Positions 15,076 to 58,077 of a DNA stretch of 64,000 bases are shown in pieces (the stretch's first letter is position 1; every line of letters begins with the position of its first letter). The notes under the pieces are model-generated. The model searched no databases. It was not told the origin of the DNA and was given only the letters and a program-made list of their open reading frames with translations. The DNA is taken from positions 124,001 through 188,000 of the forward strand of contig JASTWF010000579.1 in assembly GCA_030390025.1 (NCBI GenBank), read 5' to 3'. This DNA is from Squalus acanthias. Lineage: Eukaryota. Position numbers and translations under genes: made by a program.

Positions 15076-15733
15076 TTTGCTGCTGACATTCCCTTATTAA
15101 CGTTGCGTTGATTAGAGGCAGCCTGTAGTGGGGTTTGTGTACAGAACTTCTCTGCTATTGCTGCTCTTCCATTTGATATGAGGCTCTGCTCCGGTGACTC
15201 CATGAATTGGAAGGGGGGCGGGGGGGGGGGGGGGGGGAAGAGGTTACTGCATTCAGCCCACTGTTGATAAATATAATTACAGGAAGGGGCAATTCAGTAG
15301 AAAATAGCCGTTTAAGAGCAATTTTTTGGGCAGAGCAAGAAGGATCTTTATCCTCTGGGTTGCGTGCACTGTGGGTTCACTTTTTTTCTTTCAAGTGCAG
15401 CACAAGAAGCTGTGCAAAAGTCTATTTCCATGGAAGGTGGCTGCCCTTGTCGTGTCCTTTCTCCCATTAGGAAAGTTTCAATAGTACTGATCTGCCAGTA
15501 GATGTAAATATTCGTGTGCTATGATGGGTGTACACAGTCTGAGGTTTGCACCTTTGGCAAGCAGGGGAATTGAAATTGCCATTGGCACCTCCCCAATGTC
15601 TGAATTGGAAAACAACAGAATTCACTGAGAATAAAGTATGTTTGAAAGATTGTGAACCCAGTGATAACTTGATTCTGTGCCGTTGCTGAGTGGATCAAAT
15701 GTAAACTTGAGATTCCTGTTTGTGTTTTTGCAG

Positions 15734-18700
15734 ATTTAAACCACAGTGGTTTGGGATCGCATTATGAAAATTCTCACTGGGGACCTGTCTCTACCAACAG
15801 TGACTCTACTACAAATTGGGATAAAGTTATTGTAGACGGGTCCGACAAAGAAGCCTGGCCTTCAATCACTGGCAGTGACCCAGAGTTGGCTTCAGAATGC
15901 ATGGACGTTGACTCTGCTTCAAGCTCTGGGTCAGAGAAGAACCTCAGTATCATGGCTTCGGGGAGCACAGTTGGTGATGGCGATGGCAACAGAACGGGCA
16001 ATGGAAACGGTTCTTCGAGCCAGTTTGTGGTTGGAAATGTCAGCAATAATGTAGGAAATGGAAGTATTAACGGGCCTTGGGGAGGATCTCGAGGCCCTTT
16101 GTCAAGCACATGTCAGGGTTCTGCAGAAAATATGGATGGCAAACCAGAAAGTGGCCATGGTAAACTGAATGCTTGGGGCAGCATAGGTTCTACATCAGGT
16201 GGATCCCTGAATCCGAATGGTTTGAATCCAAATGCCAACCTAGGTGCCTGGCCTGTGTTGGAAAGTGATGGAAATACTGTGCAAGGACTTGTGCCAGGTG
16301 GCAATTCTGGCACCAATGTTCAACGTAGCACTGTAGGTCAAATGCTGAATAATCAGAGTGTTAACATGGGACTATCAGCTCATGGTTCGTGGGGAGGACT
16401 GCAGGAGAATTCTGATGCAGACGTTAATGGTACAAGGAAGGTTTCATTCAGTGGACAACCTCAAAACCTTAACACTGAAATGAATGGACCAAATAACACT
16501 ACTAACCCTTTGACCTCTAGCTTACCAAACTCTACTAGTTCAATGCAGACAAATGAACTGCCTAAACTTACAGGGCCTGGGGCCTGGGGTGTACCCTTAG
16601 GAATGAGCACAGTAAACCCATCTCAGCTTCAGGCCTCTTCAATTACAAATGGCACTTCCGTTTCTCAGCTTGGCAATGGAGGAATTAGTGAGGGAATGAA
16701 CAGTGGGTCTTATGGTACGACTTGGGGTACATCTGGCACTAACTATTCTGGCGAAAAATGTCCAGGCTCGAGCAGTAATTTGGGGCAAGCTAGTGGTGAC
16801 ACTGTGAATGCAACTCTAGCACAATCTGCTATTAATGGATCTGGAAGTACTGCTTACAAAAGTAATGGGGGAAGCAATAGAGGGGGAGTCGCATGGGAAT
16901 CTGGTGTGGTCAACTCCCACAATATGGCTTGGGGGGCAGGGAACAGTATTGGCTCCGGAGGGGCTAGAAGAGTCTGGGGAAACCCAGCACCAAATGCAAA
17001 CACTGGCACTAATGTCTCAAATGGGGAATGGAACAAACTGCCTAACAATCAGCATTCCACTAATGGTCTAAATGGAAGTGGTAATAGGAAGGGAACAAAT
17101 GGTTGGAAAAGTCTAGACGATGCTCTTTGTGGTCAGAATCAGAATTCTACTACGTCTCAGCCGAGTGAACAGAACAATATGTGGGTCAAAACTCCAACGT
17201 CAACTTCAGGTACTGCGGACAGTGAGGGGAGCACAGAGAGCACTGGGAGTCGCCATGATAGAATGAGTGTAGGAAGCGGTGATGGCAGTGGCAGACGTGG
17301 TGAGAAAAGGAAACCTGACCAGCCAGGAATGGTCCAAAGTATTCTGAGTAGAACTGACTTGGACCCACGTGTACTTTCCAATACAGGTTGGGGGCAGACT
17401 CCAATCAAACAGAACACTGCCTGGGATATTGAACCTTCAGCAAAGAGCGAGAGAAAAACTGACAATGGAACAGAGGCGTGGGGAGGTCGTGTTTCCCAAG
17501 CTTCAAACTCAGGGGGGTGGGGGGATGGGCCTGGCCCGAACAGTAATGATACCTCATCAGTATCTGGGTGGGGGGATCCAAAGCCTGCTACAGTCTCTTG
17601 CAACACAGGGTGGGGAGACACCAAAGGCTCAAGCAGCCAAGGGGGGTGGGAGGATAATTCTGCTGCTACAGGAATGGTAAAGAGCAATCAAACGTGGGGA
17701 GGTAACAAAGAGGAGAAGTCAACTGCGTGGAATGATGCACAAAAGGTCAAACAGGGATGGGTTGATGGACAGAAATCAAACCAAGGTTGGGGAATGTCTG
17801 GAGCTGATGGATGGGGAGAGAATTCAAGGGGTGGCCAGTGGGGGGAATCACAGAAGACTAGCTCAGGCGGTTGGGATAACGACAGCGATAGATCTGTGTC
17901 TGGCTGGAGTGAACCTGGGAGACCGGGCGCAGGTCGAGGCACATGGGCAAGTAGCAACAATTCAAACCCCAATAATACTACAGGTTGGGGAGAGCCCACC
18001 AAGCCTGCTCAGTCCCAGGGCTGGGGGGAACCCGCCAAGCCTGCTCAGTCCCAGGGCTGGGGGGAACCCGCCAAGCCTGCTCAGTCCCAAGGCTGGGGGG
18101 AACCCGCCAAGCCTGCTCAGTCCCAAGGCTGGGGGGAACCCGCCAAGCCTGCTCAGTCCCAAGGCTGGGGGGAACCCGCCAAGCCTGCTCAGTCCCAGGG
18201 CTGGGGGGAACCCGCCAAGCCTGCTCAGTCCCAGGGCTGGGGGGAACCCGCCAAGCCTGCTCAGTCCCAGGGCTGGGGGGAACCTGCCAAGCCTGCTCAG
18301 TCCCAGGGCTGGGGGGAACACACCAAGCCTGCTCAGTCCCAGGGCTGGGGGGAACCCGCCAAGCCTGCTCAGTCCCAGGGCTGGGGGGAACCCGCCAAGC
18401 CGAGTAACTCTGCAGACTGGAACAAGCCACAGGACAGTAACAGTTCTTGGGGAGCCACACCTCCTGCAAATAAACCTTCCGGCCCGGGCTGGCTCAATGG
18501 CCCGATGCCAGCTCCATCAAAAGAGGAGGAACCTACAGGCTGGGAGGAGCCTTCTCCAGAGTCTATTCGCCGCAAAATGGAAATCGATGACGGCACCGCC
18601 GCCTGGGGGGATCCGAGCAAGTACAACTACAAGAGTGTGAACATGTGGAACAAAAATGCGCAGAGCAGCGGCAACGGCGCAGAGCAGTCAGCACAGGTCC

Positions 18701-18805
18701 AGCCCCCGCCGACACCACAGCAGCCCCCATCGCAACACCAACAGCAGCTGCCGCAGCAAATGCCACCGCCAAGTGCCATGCAGAACAAGGAGAACAGTGG
18801 CTCCG
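15734..18805 (+). CDS. TNRC6A: TNRC6A giant exon (3072 nt): GW/WG-rich Argonaute-binding domain ([43 protein letters not shown])
   Basis: ttttgcag|ATTTAAAC and TCCG|gtaagt; the ORF 15751-19041 translation is collinear with vertebrate TNRC6A up to the donor. Confidence 0.97.
17983..18402 (+). repeat. Coding minisatellite, 36-bp unit x ~11.7 ([12 protein letters not shown])
   Basis: ggctggggggaacccgccaagcctgctcagtcccag repeated near-perfectly. Confidence 0.97.
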
Positions 18806-19734
18806 GTAAGTTTATCGCCATGACTTGCAGCTTCAGAAGTGCGAGAAACAAAAGGGTGAAATTTGAGTTTCTGCTGGTTTTTTTGGTATCGTATATTCGG
18901 AAATGTCAACTAGTTAGAAACTGTACTGCATTCAGATGTAGCACCGTGTGCTTGTGTGTCTCTTGTGTACATGTGTTCGTTTATAAACTCCTGTGTACAC
19001 CCTTGGAATCGTGCTTTCAGAGGTGTGCATTTGTAACCTAGCTGGATTCTTTCTGTGCCGTTATTTCACAAAATCCTTGTACATCGAGACCTAAAGACAG
19101 CGATAGGATTTTGAAATTTTTGGCTGTATTTACCTTCCAGTATAATTAATTGTTTTTTGGGAGTGTGTAGGTGGGCTTTTTAGTAGTTTGGATATTAACT
19201 GCATAGGATTACATACTAGATGTAGGAGAAACAGTTTAATTTTAATTGGTGCCTACTGTGTGTGTCTAGTTTGTGAGCCTGTAATATGTTTAAAAAAAAA
19301 GAGATTAGATGAGGCAGGTGGGGGGGGGGGGGGGGGGGGGGGGTTTGTTAATCCTAAATTGTGTGGATATATTCACCCAAGCAGGCTGTCCAATTCATCA
19401 AACTCTGTATTGGCTCTTTTTACTGTTCTTGTCTAGGGCGAGTGACCTCAATGTGTCTCCCCCTTTACTCTTGGAGTTGGGTGTCAATGGCCTGGGGCTC
19501 CACTCTGGTTTTAGCATTTACTTCTCTGAACCCTTTTCTTTAATCTGGTCCATTCCGTGAGCCTGCGGTGCAGTGGGTTCCTCGAGCGTGGTGTTTATAC
19601 TGCTGAGCTCAGCTGATAGCAAGTGACCCGCACGCTAACATGTCGTCATGACTCCTTTTATTTCTCCCCTCTCGGGTACTCTGCCCTCCCAAATCCCTAC
19701 CCCAACCCTTCAGCACTCCTCGACCTTACTCGTC

Positions 19735-26500: not shown

Positions 26501-27602
26501 TGAAATACTCGGAAGTGATGTCAGGAATTATGAAAAAGTATCTGTTTTGATTATGAATCTAAGTGTGGTGCGGTTGGTTCCTTCCCCCCCCCCAGCCATT
26601 CAATGGATCAGCAACATCCTCTGGGGAAAAATGCCATTTTAATTAGTTTTTATGTTGCGCTTGCAGCAAGAAATGAATGAAGTGATGAGGTAGTTTGTTG
26701 AACCTGCATGGTTTCTATAGTCAGGCCTACTAGTGCAGCTTTAGCTTGTCTCCCTTCTCCCTGTCCACTTTGCAGGACTATCAGTAACTCCTGTCTCCCT
26801 ACATCTCTGCTTCCAGCCTCAGGTCTGATGTGTGGCTCAGGTTATTGAAGCTCTGCTATGCTGTGCCAGGATGCAGGTATATACCCTGAAACCTCACGTG
26901 GTGTTACCATTCTCAGCCACATCTCACGGGGAAGCACTGAGGCTAGTCTGGGTGCTGCCTCTCGGCCCACCCTTGCGTATCTTCTCGCAACACCAGCAAA
27001 GGCCTGTTGTCCAAATGTGGTGTTTGGGGAATGGAGAAGGAAAGTTTCACGAGTGACTGGGTGAGTGGTACAGCCCTGGAAGGACCAGGGTTAGAGCTGT
27101 GGTCTGTGCTGAGGTAGCTAATCCCGGCCAGGACACCTGTATGAGACGCCGCAGTCAGCCTCTGTGCCTGGGTTAAGGAAGGGGCAGTCGGCCAGCCTTC
27201 CTGCTCCTGACCAGTGCCCAACAACCCCTTGGTCTGTAGCAGTAAGGTGAGGTCTGCTATACTGAGGAACCCAAGATGTATTTCAGTGGTAGTGACAGAC
27301 ATATCTGGAGGGTCTGATTTTAGGTGAGCGGGGCTAGAAGGGAGAGGGCTACAGCAGATTCTGTGTTTTAAGCTTAGAGTATCACCGGGACACACTATTT
27401 GATTTGTAAGTAACCTGTGCAGATTACAACTTTGCTCGAGAGTCATGAGGTGCTTGTGAAGTTTTGTATTCCATATCCCACGCCCAAACAAGTGGCACAT
27501 CCTCTTCATTTTAGCACCACAGTGGCAGAGCGGCTTGTGTTGACAAGGATATCAACTGGGCAGTTTTGTTTTGTTTTTTGTTTTCCTTTTTATTTAATAA
27601 AG

Positions 27603-27809
27603 GTTGGGGAGAACCTTGCACCATTCAGACAAAGCCAGAATCCTCTTGGGGAGAACCACCTGCTCTAACCGCGACCGTGGACAATGGAACAGCGGCCTGG
27701 GGTCAACCCATGGATACAGGAACCAGCTGGAGAGAGCCGGTTAATGACAGTGCTGGTACCTCTGGCTGGGGCAACACCCCAGCTGCCCTGCCACCTCCAA
27801 ATAGACCTG
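27603..27809 (+). CDS. TNRC6A: TNRC6A exon: GWGEP...TVDNGTAAWGQP (Ago-hook)
   Basis: Polypyrimidine tract ...taataaag| acceptor and CCTG|gtaaaa donor, phase 1-1. Confidence 0.93.
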
Positions 27810-28672
27810 GTAAAACTCTGAACTCTTTCTAAATTTAACACGGGTGCAAAACTGGACAGTAGGTGCGATTCATTGTGCATTGGGGCTTTGGGTAATGGGC
27901 TCCATCACTAGTTTGGTTTGTGAGGCATGCTATCTTGTTTAATGTTTATTAAGTTACAAAGTGCATCTTCCTCCACTTCATTTAACACCTTTTTCTGCCA
28001 ATTGCATGGATTCCATTCTTAACACTTGGTGTAGATGTCTTGACTACTTCACCACAAAATGCACTAATTGAGGTTTAAATCTGCTGTTGGGCATTGTTAC
28101 CCCCCCCCCCCTTTTAATTTTTATTCTGTCCCATCTTTAGGTTTCCCCAGCGCTGAGTGCCTTCCCCAATCAAGGACACGGGCAGGCAGCCTGTGTCCGG
28201 CCACTGGTAAAAGCATGAAGTCAGCTTTCCTTCCGCTCCCCCAAGTGCCTTTGTCACCTTTCTCCCAAGAAAAAGGCCTGCAGCTCTCTAATGTCCTTCT
28301 GCTTCTGGTTGAGGTTGTGAACATAAATAAATCTACAAATATCCACACAGTTCTTTGTGTGCAGAATTAAAAGAGCAGCCCTGCAAGGCACACCATGGCA
28401 TATCACCGTACTGGGCTAGAGGCCGCCCTTCTGGCCAGGTGTTTAAAGAATCAACGCAATCTGTTTCTGTTCCTGCATGTCATTAACCTAATTGGATGTA
28501 CTCAGTAAATAATTTATAGAAAATACTACTCTGCCGTCCCAAGCCAAGACCAGCGCTGCTCAGAAACATTCGCAGCAGTTGGTTTCTAAAAGAGGGCGGG
28601 AGGGAAATCCAGACCACAATTTAAAGGCTTGATGCCTCTCAACAGTTATATTCAATGATCTGTTCTTTACAG

Positions 28673-31971: not shown

Positions 31972-32449
31972 CTTCCCACCCTTACCCCAATTATCTTCCA
32001 ACCCTTACCCCAATTATCTTCCCACCCTTACCCCAATTATCTTCCCACCCTTACCCCAATTATCTTCCCACCCTTACCCCAATTATCTTCCCACCCTTAC
32101 CCCAATTATCTTCCCACCCTTACCCCAATTATCTTCCCACCCTTACCCCAATTATCTTCCCACCCTTACCCCAATTATCTTCCCACCCTATCCCAATTAT
32201 CTTCCCACCCTATCCCAATTATCATCCCACCCTATCCCAATTATCATCCCACCCTATCCCAATTATCATCCCACCCTATCCCAATTATCATCCCACCCTA
32301 TCCCAATTATCATCCCACCCTATCCCAATTATCATCCCACCCTATCCCAATTATCATCCCACCCTATCCCAATTATCATCCCACCCTATCCCAATTATCA
32401 TCCCACCCTCCCCCAATTATCTTTCCACCCTCCCCCAATTATCTTCCCA
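31972..32449. repeat. Intronic minisatellite: 23-bp cttcccacccttaccccaattat grading into 22-bp catcccaccctatcccaattat
   Basis: Direct inspection, ~21 units. Confidence 0.95.
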
Positions 32450-33766
32450 CTCCAAAGACAGGCAGGTAATGTCTATTGTCGCTGCTTTGAGCTGTGTGCT
32501 TGCAGGTTGGAATCAAGGGCTATGAGGGTCGGGCAGGAAAGTGGCGTTGAGGTGTGAGATCAGCCATGATCTTATTGAATGGCGGAGCGGGCTTGAGAGG
32601 CCGTTTGGCCTCCTCCTGCTCCTAATTCTTTTGTGTGGCCTCCCAACTATTCCCTTTTCATACTGAAGCTCTTGTAATCTCAGCTCTGTTCTGGCACTTT
32701 CTCCCTGACTTGATTGAGATTATAAACTCGTGAGAAATGATGGCACAAACCAGCAGCTTGTCCACAGAATCGTAGAACTTTACAGCACAGAAAGAGGCTA
32801 TTCTACCCATTTCTGTTGTGTCAGCTCACTGAAAGAGCTACCTTCTTAATCCCATTCCCCTGCCCTTTCCACACACCCTGTTAAATTTTTATTTAAATAT
32901 TTATCCACTTCCCTTTTAGCAGCTATTATGGATCCCACCACTGTTTCTCTTCAGAGCACACTGGTGCAATGATGTATCATGCACCCAACATCAAATAGTT
33001 ACCAGATCCACTGTACTTTGCAGATCCTATGGTACAGATCATTTCGGGAAGTCTGTCGGAGCATCTAGCAGCTGTAGATGAGCAGTGCGGGTCCTGATCG
33101 ATTTGTAAAATATTCTACAGGAAGAATCTATCACTGGGCTAGTTGAGCACAACACCTCCACTCACCTGAATATTAAAACTGCCCACATGCTCATGGTTAG
33201 GGAAGTGCTGGTGATGAGAGTAATATACAGTCCTTGTGTAAGAGGGGAGGGGTTCTGACCTGTCTGAGGGATCCCAGCCGGGAATGGGTTTTTATCTCGT
33301 CAGAGTGGCTGCAGGGTAGGTTTATTGGTGTAGTTCCCCGTCCCCTGCCTCACCACCATCACAGTTAAGTTAAAGTTGAAAAGAAATGAATTGAAATCAC
33401 TTCCCTAATGCATTTTGCATTTGTAATTATTGCAGAAACTGAAGCGATGAGGGGTTGGTTGGTTGAACGAACCGTCACACTGCAAATAGAAATGCGGGAA
33501 CGGGTGGGGTTCATTTTTAAAAAGGAGCGGCCTAAGGGAAGAGGAGGCCATGGTTTAGTTTAATTCGGAATGAAACCGAGCAGGGAATTGTCAGCGCTGG
33601 AACTATTGAAGTGAAACCTGTTGAATGTCCATAGTTGAGTGTACTGTTATCTCTTGTCTTTCCCCTACACTGGCTCTGTCTGTCTGCGGGTCTGTGCACT
33701 ATGAAGCTGGGATGTGTTTAAAATGGCGGATCTTTGCTCTGATGCTGCTTGTGCTCTCGTTCACAG

Positions 33767-39766: not shown

Positions 39767-40434
39767 CCCAGCATGTGGTGCGATTGGGAGTGTTGGTCTT
39801 CAGCCCAGCATGTGGTGCGATTGGGAGTGTTGATCTTCAGCCCAGCATGTGGTGCGATTGGGAGTGTTGATCTTCAGCCCAGCATGTGGTGCGATTGGGA
39901 GTGTTGATCTTCAGCCCAGCATGTGGTGCGATTGGGAGTGTTGATCTTCAGCCCAGCATGTGGTGCGATTGGGAATGTTGATCTTCAGCCCAGCATGTGG
40001 TGCGATTGGGAGTGTTGATCTTCAGCCCAGCATGTGGTGCGATTGGGAGTGTTGATCTTCAGCCCAGCATGTGGTGCGATTGGGAATGTTGATCTTCAGC
40101 CCAGCATGTGGTGCGATTGGGAATGTTGATCTTCAGCCCAGCATGTGGTGCGATTGGGAATGTTGATCTTCAGCCCAGCATGTGGTGCGATTGGGAGTGT
40201 TGATCTTCAGCCCAGCATGTGGTGCGATTGGGAGTGTTGATCTTCAGCCCAGCATGTGGTGCGATTGGCAGTGTTGATCTTCAGCCCAGCATGTGGTGCG
40301 ATTGGGAGTGTTGATCTTCAGCCCAGCATGTGGTGCGATTGGCAGTGTTGATCTTCAGCCCAGCATGTGGTGCGATTGGCAGTGTTGATCTTCAGCCCAG
40401 CATGTGGTGCGATTGGCAGTGTTGATCTTCAGCC
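39767..40434. repeat. Intronic minisatellite, 37-bp unit x 18
   Basis: cccagcatgtggtgcgattgggagtgttgatcttcag; 666/37 = 18. Confidence 0.97.
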
Positions 40435-55429: not shown

Positions 55430-56125
55430 AGGCAGCCGTGGCTCAGTGGGTAGCACCGTTGCCTCTGTGTCAGGAGGTTGTGGGTTCAAGTCCACTCCAG
55501 AGACTTGAGCACAAAAATCTAGGCTGACACTCCCAGTGCAGTACTGAGGGAGTGCCGTACTGAGGGAGCGCCGCACTGTCGGAGGGGCAGTACTGAGGGA
55601 GTGCCGCACTGTCGGAGGGGCAGTACTGAGGGAGCGGTGCGCTGTCGGAGGGGCAGTACTGAGGGAGCGTTGCACTGTCGGAGGGGTAGTACTGAGGGAG
55701 CGCCGCACTGTCGGAGGGGCAGTACTGAGGGAGCGTTGCACTGTCGGAGGGGCAGTACTGAGGGAGCGCGCACTGTCGGAGGGGCAGTACTGAGGGAGCG
55801 CTGCACTGTCGGAGGTGCTGTCTTTGGCATGAGACGTTAAACCGAGCTCTCTCAGGTGGATGTAAAAGATCCTATGGCACTATTTCGAATAAGAGCAGGC
55901 GAGTTATCCCCCATATCCTGGCCAATATTTATCCCTCAATCAACATCACTAAAAAAAGCACATTATCTGGTCATTATCACATTGCTGTTTGGGGGATCTT
56001 GCTGTGCGCAAATTGGCTGCTGTATTTCCTACATTACAACAGTGGCTACACTTCAAAAGTATTTCATTGGCTTTAAAGGGCCTTGGGATGTCATGAAAGG
56101 CGCTATAGAAATGCAATGCTATTGT
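55430..56125 (+). mobile_element. Full-length tRNA-headed DeuSINE-type SINE with an internal 33-bp tandem expansion (~55540-55816)
   Basis: A box tggctcagtggg, B box ggttcaagtcc, Deu-like core ggatgtaaaagatcctatggcact...tcctggccaa, L2-like tail. Confidence 0.85.
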
Positions 56126-57789: not shown

Positions 57790-58077
57790 GGTAATTGCCC
57801 TGTCTAGGTGGGTAACTGCACTGTCTGGGGTAATTGCCCTGTCTAGGTGGGTAACTGCACTGTCTGGGGTAACTGCCCTGTCTGGGGTAATTGCCCTGTC
57901 TAGGTGGGTAACTGCCCTGTCTGGGGTAATTGCCCTGTCTAGGTGGGTAACTGCCCTGTCTGGGGTAATTGCCCTGTCTAGGTGGGTAACTGCCCTGTCT
58001 GGGGTAATTGCCCTGTCTAGGTGGGTAATTGCCCTGTCTAGGTGGGTAACTGCCCTGTCTGGGGTAATTGCCCTGTA
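57790..58077. repeat. Minisatellite of alternating 21-bp and 18-bp related units
   Basis: gtaattgccctgtctaggtgg / gtaactgccctgtctggg. Confidence 0.93.

Follow-up and report, generated by a model that had tools for sequence, protein, structure and literature searches.

A 36-bp coding minisatellite in the TNRC6A gene of Squalus acanthias at a site of 2 to 16 GW units in jawed vertebrates

A long run of near-identical GW units in the TNRC6A gene of Squalus acanthias raises the question of whether the sites by which the encoded protein holds Argonaute have been multiplied in this shark, or whether a minisatellite has grown in frame beside them. In the current analysis, we describe the array and its surroundings in the window (the whole stretch of 64,000 nucleotides that was analysed), compare the corresponding site across jawed vertebrates, and weigh what the repeated units may do. 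Two features define the locus:

17983..18402, forward strand: TNRC6A coding minisatellite of 11 full and 1 partial 36-bp units (sequence reading, Tandem Repeats Finder and a genome-wide core count)
15734..18805, forward strand: large TNRC6A coding exon holding most of the N-terminal Argonaute-binding domain, with 49 Trp (open frame 15673-19041; acceptor and donor in the sequence)

The 11 full units occupy positions 17983-18378 and are followed by a partial unit of 24 bp that ends at 18402; the frame is that of the 3.07-kb exon (15734-18805), and the translation contains 12 GWG motifs, with 12 Trp spaced exactly 12 residues apart, and the unit count and even spacing given in an earlier note on this DNA are confirmed. 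Tandem Repeats Finder assigns the array a period of 36, 11.6 copies and 97% matches (score 769). The variants that the same note had singled out are likewise present, namely CAA in place of CAG at the end of units 3-5 and a single HT unit, which is unit 10 (GWGEHTK); in addition, unit 1 departs from the commonest letters at 4 places, and one further synonymous change is found in unit 9. Five distinct DNA units are arranged in ordered blocks, and the mean divergence among units 2-11 is 3.0%. A genome-wide count (3.7 Gb) of the exact 33-base core gave 8 matches, every one inside the array (8/8), and 0 for its reversed-pattern control. The residue palette is limited to G, P, Q, A, W, E, K, S, T, and H, and the array combines the properties by which WG/GW platforms are recognised (i.e., repeated GW or WG, Trp at least 10 residues apart, and small polar sequence). 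No canonical G-quadruplex motif is present on either strand of the array. In being in frame, with a 36-bp unit, 97% purity and variant units in blocks, the array resembles coding VNTRs (length-polymorphic exonic minisatellites), from which it differs in that its length variation is known here between species only.

By comparison with its orthologues and paralogues, the gene that carries the array is TNRC6A, and not TNRC6B or TNRC6C. The large exon is 80.9% identical to residues 179-1141 of skate TNRC6A, and its portion upstream of the array reaches 88.5% identity (1283 bits), which bears out the earlier assignment of the array to TNRC6A and to its Argonaute-binding domain. The same portion shares 43-44% identity with four TNRC6C proteins and 37% with three TNRC6B proteins, with best scores of no more than 389 and 276 bits, respectively. 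TNRC6B and TNRC6C are encoded on other contigs, with about two units at the equivalent position; the TNRC6C paralogue of this genome shares 96% identity with its counterpart in the sawshark Pristiophorus and 86-90% with those of five other elasmobranchs. Skate TNRC6A aligns exon by exon, in order, over window positions 2069-50053 (residues 1141-1210 mapping to 27602-27811), and has Pfam matches to Ago_hook (1166-1280), M_domain, TNRC6-PABC_bdg, and RRM; through this mapping, the GW182-family order of N-terminal Trp-rich domain, Ago hook, PAM2 region and RRM is found in the window. A Pfam search of the large array exon itself returned no family. Toward the end of that exon (about 18690-18780), shark, skate, and chimaera have a Gln/Pro-rich stretch that exceeds in length its counterpart in coelacanth, newt, and marmoset. 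Four other near-perfect minisatellites occur in the window (31972-32450, 39767-40434, 55557-55815, and 57790-58076, with units of 22, 37, 33, and 39 bp, respectively, 7-21 copies, and 92-98% matches); the first and second fall between exons mapped to TNRC6A, the third and fourth beyond the last such exon.

Whether Argonaute sites have been multiplied depends on where the array stands relative to the mapped ones, for which four further features are needed:

17344..17424, forward strand: conserved site homologous to the T6B peptide region, ending in a W pair, single copy and intact (T6B sequence as given in a supplement table of PMC13083262)
17887..17946, forward strand: conserved Trp pair shortly before the array (DRSVSGW ... 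GRGTW; position in the orthologue comparison)
18403..18558, forward strand: conserved closing stretch (DWNK ... GWEEPSP), the anchor for unit counts in orthologues
27603..27811, forward strand: next exon, with the Ago hook at about 27671-27739 (PDB 5W6V chain B and the skate TNRC6A mapping)

The array is located between the T6B-type site, which ends ~190 residues before it, and the Ago hook, whose peptide (PDB 5W6V chain B, solved with human AGO1) corresponds to skate TNRC6A 1164-1186 and maps to the next exon. Derivation of the units as copies of the T6B-type site or of the Ago hook was ruled out, both being intact elsewhere. The claim that GW motifs have been multiplied in the Argonaute-binding domain consequently holds as to location and has to be narrowed as to extent: the strong sites are not duplicated, and the anchored stretch contains 45 Trp in this TNRC6A versus 34-36 in coelacanth, lungfish, and amniotes. 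In human TNRC6A numbering, we take the hook Trp to be position 828 and motif II to be 601-642, and the Trp pair at 17887..17946 is presumably the end of motif II. With the hook Trp set to 828, the three marmoset units fall at 657, 669, and 681, past the motif II end of 642 that we assume, and by the same assumed bounds the three homologous human units would remain after deletion of the three mapped motifs. Human TNRC6A from which these motifs were deleted shows little or no Ago2 binding, according to the available text of PMC4787778, which suggests that binding by three such units on their own is weak at most. The available portions of PMC5570423, PMC12388510, PMC8101250, PMC11115314, and PMC6155107 give no motif bounds and do not mention the array.

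Could the array have been over-expanded or invented in assembly, as the earlier note advised checking? Contigs from four sequencing runs (out of 24 listed runs) were compared at the locus, and none of the 12 contig pieces spans the array; moreover, an older gene model of the chimaera has 8 units, one of them broken, versus 16 in a newer one, so assemblies do miscount at this site. An artefact is nonetheless very improbable. The five distinct DNA units in ordered blocks and the long arrays of 12 named species (see below) speak against it, as do the word depths in a second individual and in another species. Run X5 is another sample of the same organism, and its repeat contigs stand at 6.4 and 4.2 times flank depth, compared to 6.5 and 5.7 predicted from the array. 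Run X11 derives from another species (16 differences over 529 flank bases, ~3%), yet its repeat unit is letter-for-letter the same, with depths of 7.2 and 5.3 times the flank versus expected values of 6.2 and 5.8. Such ratios fit a similar array size but are too coarse for unit counts or polymorphism, and in neither run do they indicate a large size change relative to the assembled array. A similar array is present in this second species. Divergence among the units and divergence of the flank from the run X11 species are both 3%, so the array probably dates from around the time of that split or was homogenised afterwards. The contigs of runs X1 and X9 end at the array edges with no repeat-internal piece and are uninformative either way; one X1 contig near 18383-18391, with a one-base gap and one differing letter at a depth below 5, was set aside as containing possible errors. 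A contig of run X5 (a run whose type is only guessed to be RNA) joins 18805 to the exon at 27603 and skips the 8.8-kb intron, showing a transcript in which the array exon is spliced in frame.

The earlier note called for a count of units across vertebrates, and the comparison was carried out on a set of 331 proteins, 153 of which were classed as TNRC6A. Units were counted between the upstream conserved Trp pair and the downstream DWNK motif; a formula of Trp minus 6 gave values that were too low in teleosts and Rhinoraja and did not work for four proteins, and those were read by eye. Of the 153 TNRC6A-class proteins, four lacked an anchor: one frog protein (P0032) was counted by eye, and P0200, P0205, and P0235 were excluded together with the fragments P0327 and P0328 and an array-skipping chimaera model (P0214). 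The counts were as follows:

Callorhinchus (chimaera): 16 units
Skates: Amblyraja 7, Leucoraja 8, Rhinoraja 7 units
Bichirs: Polypterus 14, Erpetoichthys 14 units
Sturgeons: Acipenser ruthenus 13, A. sinensis 13, Huso 13, A. oxyrinchus 11 units
Paddlefish (Polyodon): 9 units
Newt (Pleurodeles): 10 units, two assemblies agreeing
Teleost-looking TNRC6A fragment P0236: about 8 diverged units
Bowfin (Amia): 3 units
Teleosts: Anguilla (eel) 4 units; four other named teleosts 3 units
Latimeria (coelacanth) 3, Protopterus (lungfish) 3 units
Amniotes: 3 units in every row read, marmoset included
Frogs: 2 units in 8/8 proteins

Judged from these proteins, the long state of the site is found in six vertebrate lineages, with 12 named species in five of them besides this shark; homologue searches covering all lengths returned no other shark or stingray TNRC6A, so that further sharks are represented by a single sequencing run. 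Numbers thus range from 2 to 16 and are not uniform across vertebrates. The three units that the earlier note gave for human are matched by those of marmoset, the mammalian sequence read for this point. Its reading of the array as a recent expansion by slippage or unequal crossover agrees with the type of array and fails as a one-off recent event, because 12 other species are long as well. The segments on either side are constant: 13-15 Trp precede the array in 17 of 17 rows with anchors (21 rows compared) and 4 follow it in 21 of 21, and the array is therefore the sole part of the domain with such a swing in Trp number. Parsimony requires 3 steps with a long ancestor and 4 with a short one, or 4 versus 4 when the short paralogues serve as outgroup; on these proteins it does not decide whether the ancestral jawed-vertebrate state was long or short, and the gain in the newt is separate in either case. 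The fragment P0236 may represent a further independent gain.

Several smaller observations accompany the counts. In frogs, the third unit has apparently decayed (GGGD or similar for GWGD) in all 8 proteins, and with two Trp units in each of them the third is dispensable there. The gene models of Callorhinchus are discordant, having 16 units, 8 units with one broken, or most of the array skipped, which indicates that older assemblies and annotations hide the repeat. In Rhinoraja TNRC6A, at residues of about 893-920, the second Trp of the pre-array pair is missing together with about 15 residues, which may be a gene-model error; the first array unit lies 12 residues past the first Trp of the pair and could substitute for the missing second one.

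The units themselves record how they have been renewed and what has been kept. Every internal unit has its best match within its own array in the shark (10/10), chimaera (14/14), and sturgeon (11/11), compared to 0/5 in skate, 6/12 in bichir, and 2/8 in newt, a pattern that fits recent turnover in the former three and old, decaying arrays in the latter three. The Trp spacing is 12 or 13 in 12 of the 12 arrays measured, and none of these 12 contains a double-length gap, the sign of a lost Trp. Bichir and newt units are about 50% alike within an array, and the Trp and one Lys are invariant in all of their 13-residue units (13/13 and 8/8, respectively), whereas at the remaining positions a mean of 34% of residues in bichir and 39% in newt differ from the commonest one. 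The rough chance of this invariance is 0.0045 for bichir and 0.02 for newt; the corresponding test of Trp retention in skate was not significant (P 0.19). As the test treats duplicated units as independent and Trp is slow to change, these values are suggestive only. Between Polypterus and Erpetoichthys, 14 units are collinear and 0 of 13 Trp have changed, a weak comparison with only 10 differences in all. The best reading of these patterns is that the array units are weakly conserved and that their number is loosely constrained.

The array is a real, transcribed coding minisatellite at a site whose long form occurs in six vertebrate lineages, the others having a short one. The reading that we prefer, with a probability of roughly 0.55, is that this 12-unit minisatellite at a site of 2 to 16 units likely supplies extra weak Argonaute-binding Trp beside unchanged strong sites. 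From the purity, the block pattern and the between-species counts, we infer that in-frame slippage or unequal crossover would add or remove whole units and homogenise them within each lineage. Reportedly, as described by Sheu-Gruttadauria and MacRae in 2018, Trp motifs drive condensates with little sequence preference. Each unit is predicted to offer one weak Trp contact to Argonaute, and Trp pairs 12-13 residues apart could reach two of the Trp pockets of the PIWI domain, into which regularly spaced Trp are described to insert (available text of PMC8476124). Weak purifying selection would keep the Trp of each unit while unit number drifts widely, and the expected effect would be a modest rise in avidity and in condensate tendency, with no new function.

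Alternatively, the array may be a tolerated minisatellite serving as neutral filler or spacer in a disordered linker, its Trp lacking effective engagement of Argonaute and their conservation being a product of unit homogenisation and slow Trp change. We regard this as possible, at something like one chance in a few. Counts scatter from 2 to 16, with 11 and 13 inside one sturgeon genus, frogs have lost the Trp of one unit, and the four other near-perfect minisatellites of the window (22-39 bp) lie outside the exon, indicating that such arrays arise readily here. A plant analogue points the same way: in the available text of 10.1101/111831, NRPE1 from which all 17-aa repeats were deleted still rescued about 60% of loci, and repeats changed from WG to AG are reported to rescue methylation. 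What is harder to reconcile with filler is that Trp and Lys are invariant in bichir and newt despite a similarity of only about 50% among the units of each array, that the 12-13 spacing is kept everywhere, and, more weakly given 10 differences, that the bichir genera are collinear with 0/13 Trp changes.

At the other extreme, the earlier note proposed that unit number could tune silencing and may be polymorphic; on the adaptive view, the number would have been selected in each lineage for Argonaute load or condensation. Such tuning would agree with repeated gain at a single site (at least two and up to about five independent events) and with a Trp count that varies in this segment only, as well as with the available text of PMC5314787, where Trp motifs of the GW182 silencing domain are additive and stepwise N-terminal deletion in Nematostella gradually lowers Argonaute recruitment. 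We nevertheless consider it improbable, as the strong sites are not duplicated, the gain amounts to 9 to 11 Trp on 34-36, the counts are tied to no trait or selection signal, and word depth reveals no large size change in the second individual or the other species. A bolder version, in our view doubtful, would make the site a fourth Argonaute-binding module that has escaped notice, marked by an invariant Trp and Lys and grown independently in cartilaginous fishes, bichirs, sturgeons, the newt, and perhaps a teleost, in which copy number sets Argonaute load and condensates; if that were true, nature would have provided a 2-to-16 valency series for microRNA silencing.

Among known systems, the closest is the Argonaute-binding domain of vertebrate TNRC6A (GW182) itself, with which the locus shares an orthologous gene and exon, the T6B-type site, Ago hook, RRM, and C-terminal region in the window, and the same site as the three-unit one of coelacanth, lungfish, and amniotes; it differs in having 12 near-identical units versus 3. 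The available text of PMC4615383, which includes chimaera among its samples, describes the vertebrate domain as having become stable in size, and a term search of its main text found no mention of this site, although its supplements may show domain lengths; the TNRC6A site qualifies that view. A second comparison is the WG/GW platform of plant Pol V NRPE1, in which tandem GW/GWG repeats are lineage-specific in number and sequence and homogeneous in some lineages, their variation being attributed to successive cycles of decay and expansion through illegitimate recombination (available text of PMC4476159). The NRPE1 repeats, however, are the major AGO4 site (available text of 10.1101/111831), whereas the TNRC6A array is an addition next to strong sites that are conserved; the NRPE1 repeats also lose all homology across lineages, whereas TNRC6A units are still recognisably related across vertebrates. 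The two are parallel, with no homology claimed, and the TNRC6A site is an animal example of the repeat turnover known from plants. Literature searches on vertebrate TNRC6 repeats found no report of the array within their coverage, most subscription papers lying outside it.

Evenly spaced units numbering 2 to 16 in an otherwise constant domain form a natural series for relating valency to Argonaute load, condensation, and repression, and the site bears on whether TNRC6 Trp outside the three mapped sites matter for silencing. Its value is more that of a ready-made valency series than of a discovery of function; should the units be without effect, the locus is an ordinary coding minisatellite. 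As for possible partners, the genome encodes Argonaute and Piwi genes. Three Piwi-domain genes stand in tandem on contig C2339 (2.25-2.52 Mb) and one stands apart on C8 (16.33 Mb), a layout that we take to be the one expected for an AGO1/3/4 cluster and AGO2. An Argonaute exon of this genome is identical to one distant complete Argonaute at 52 of 65 residues.
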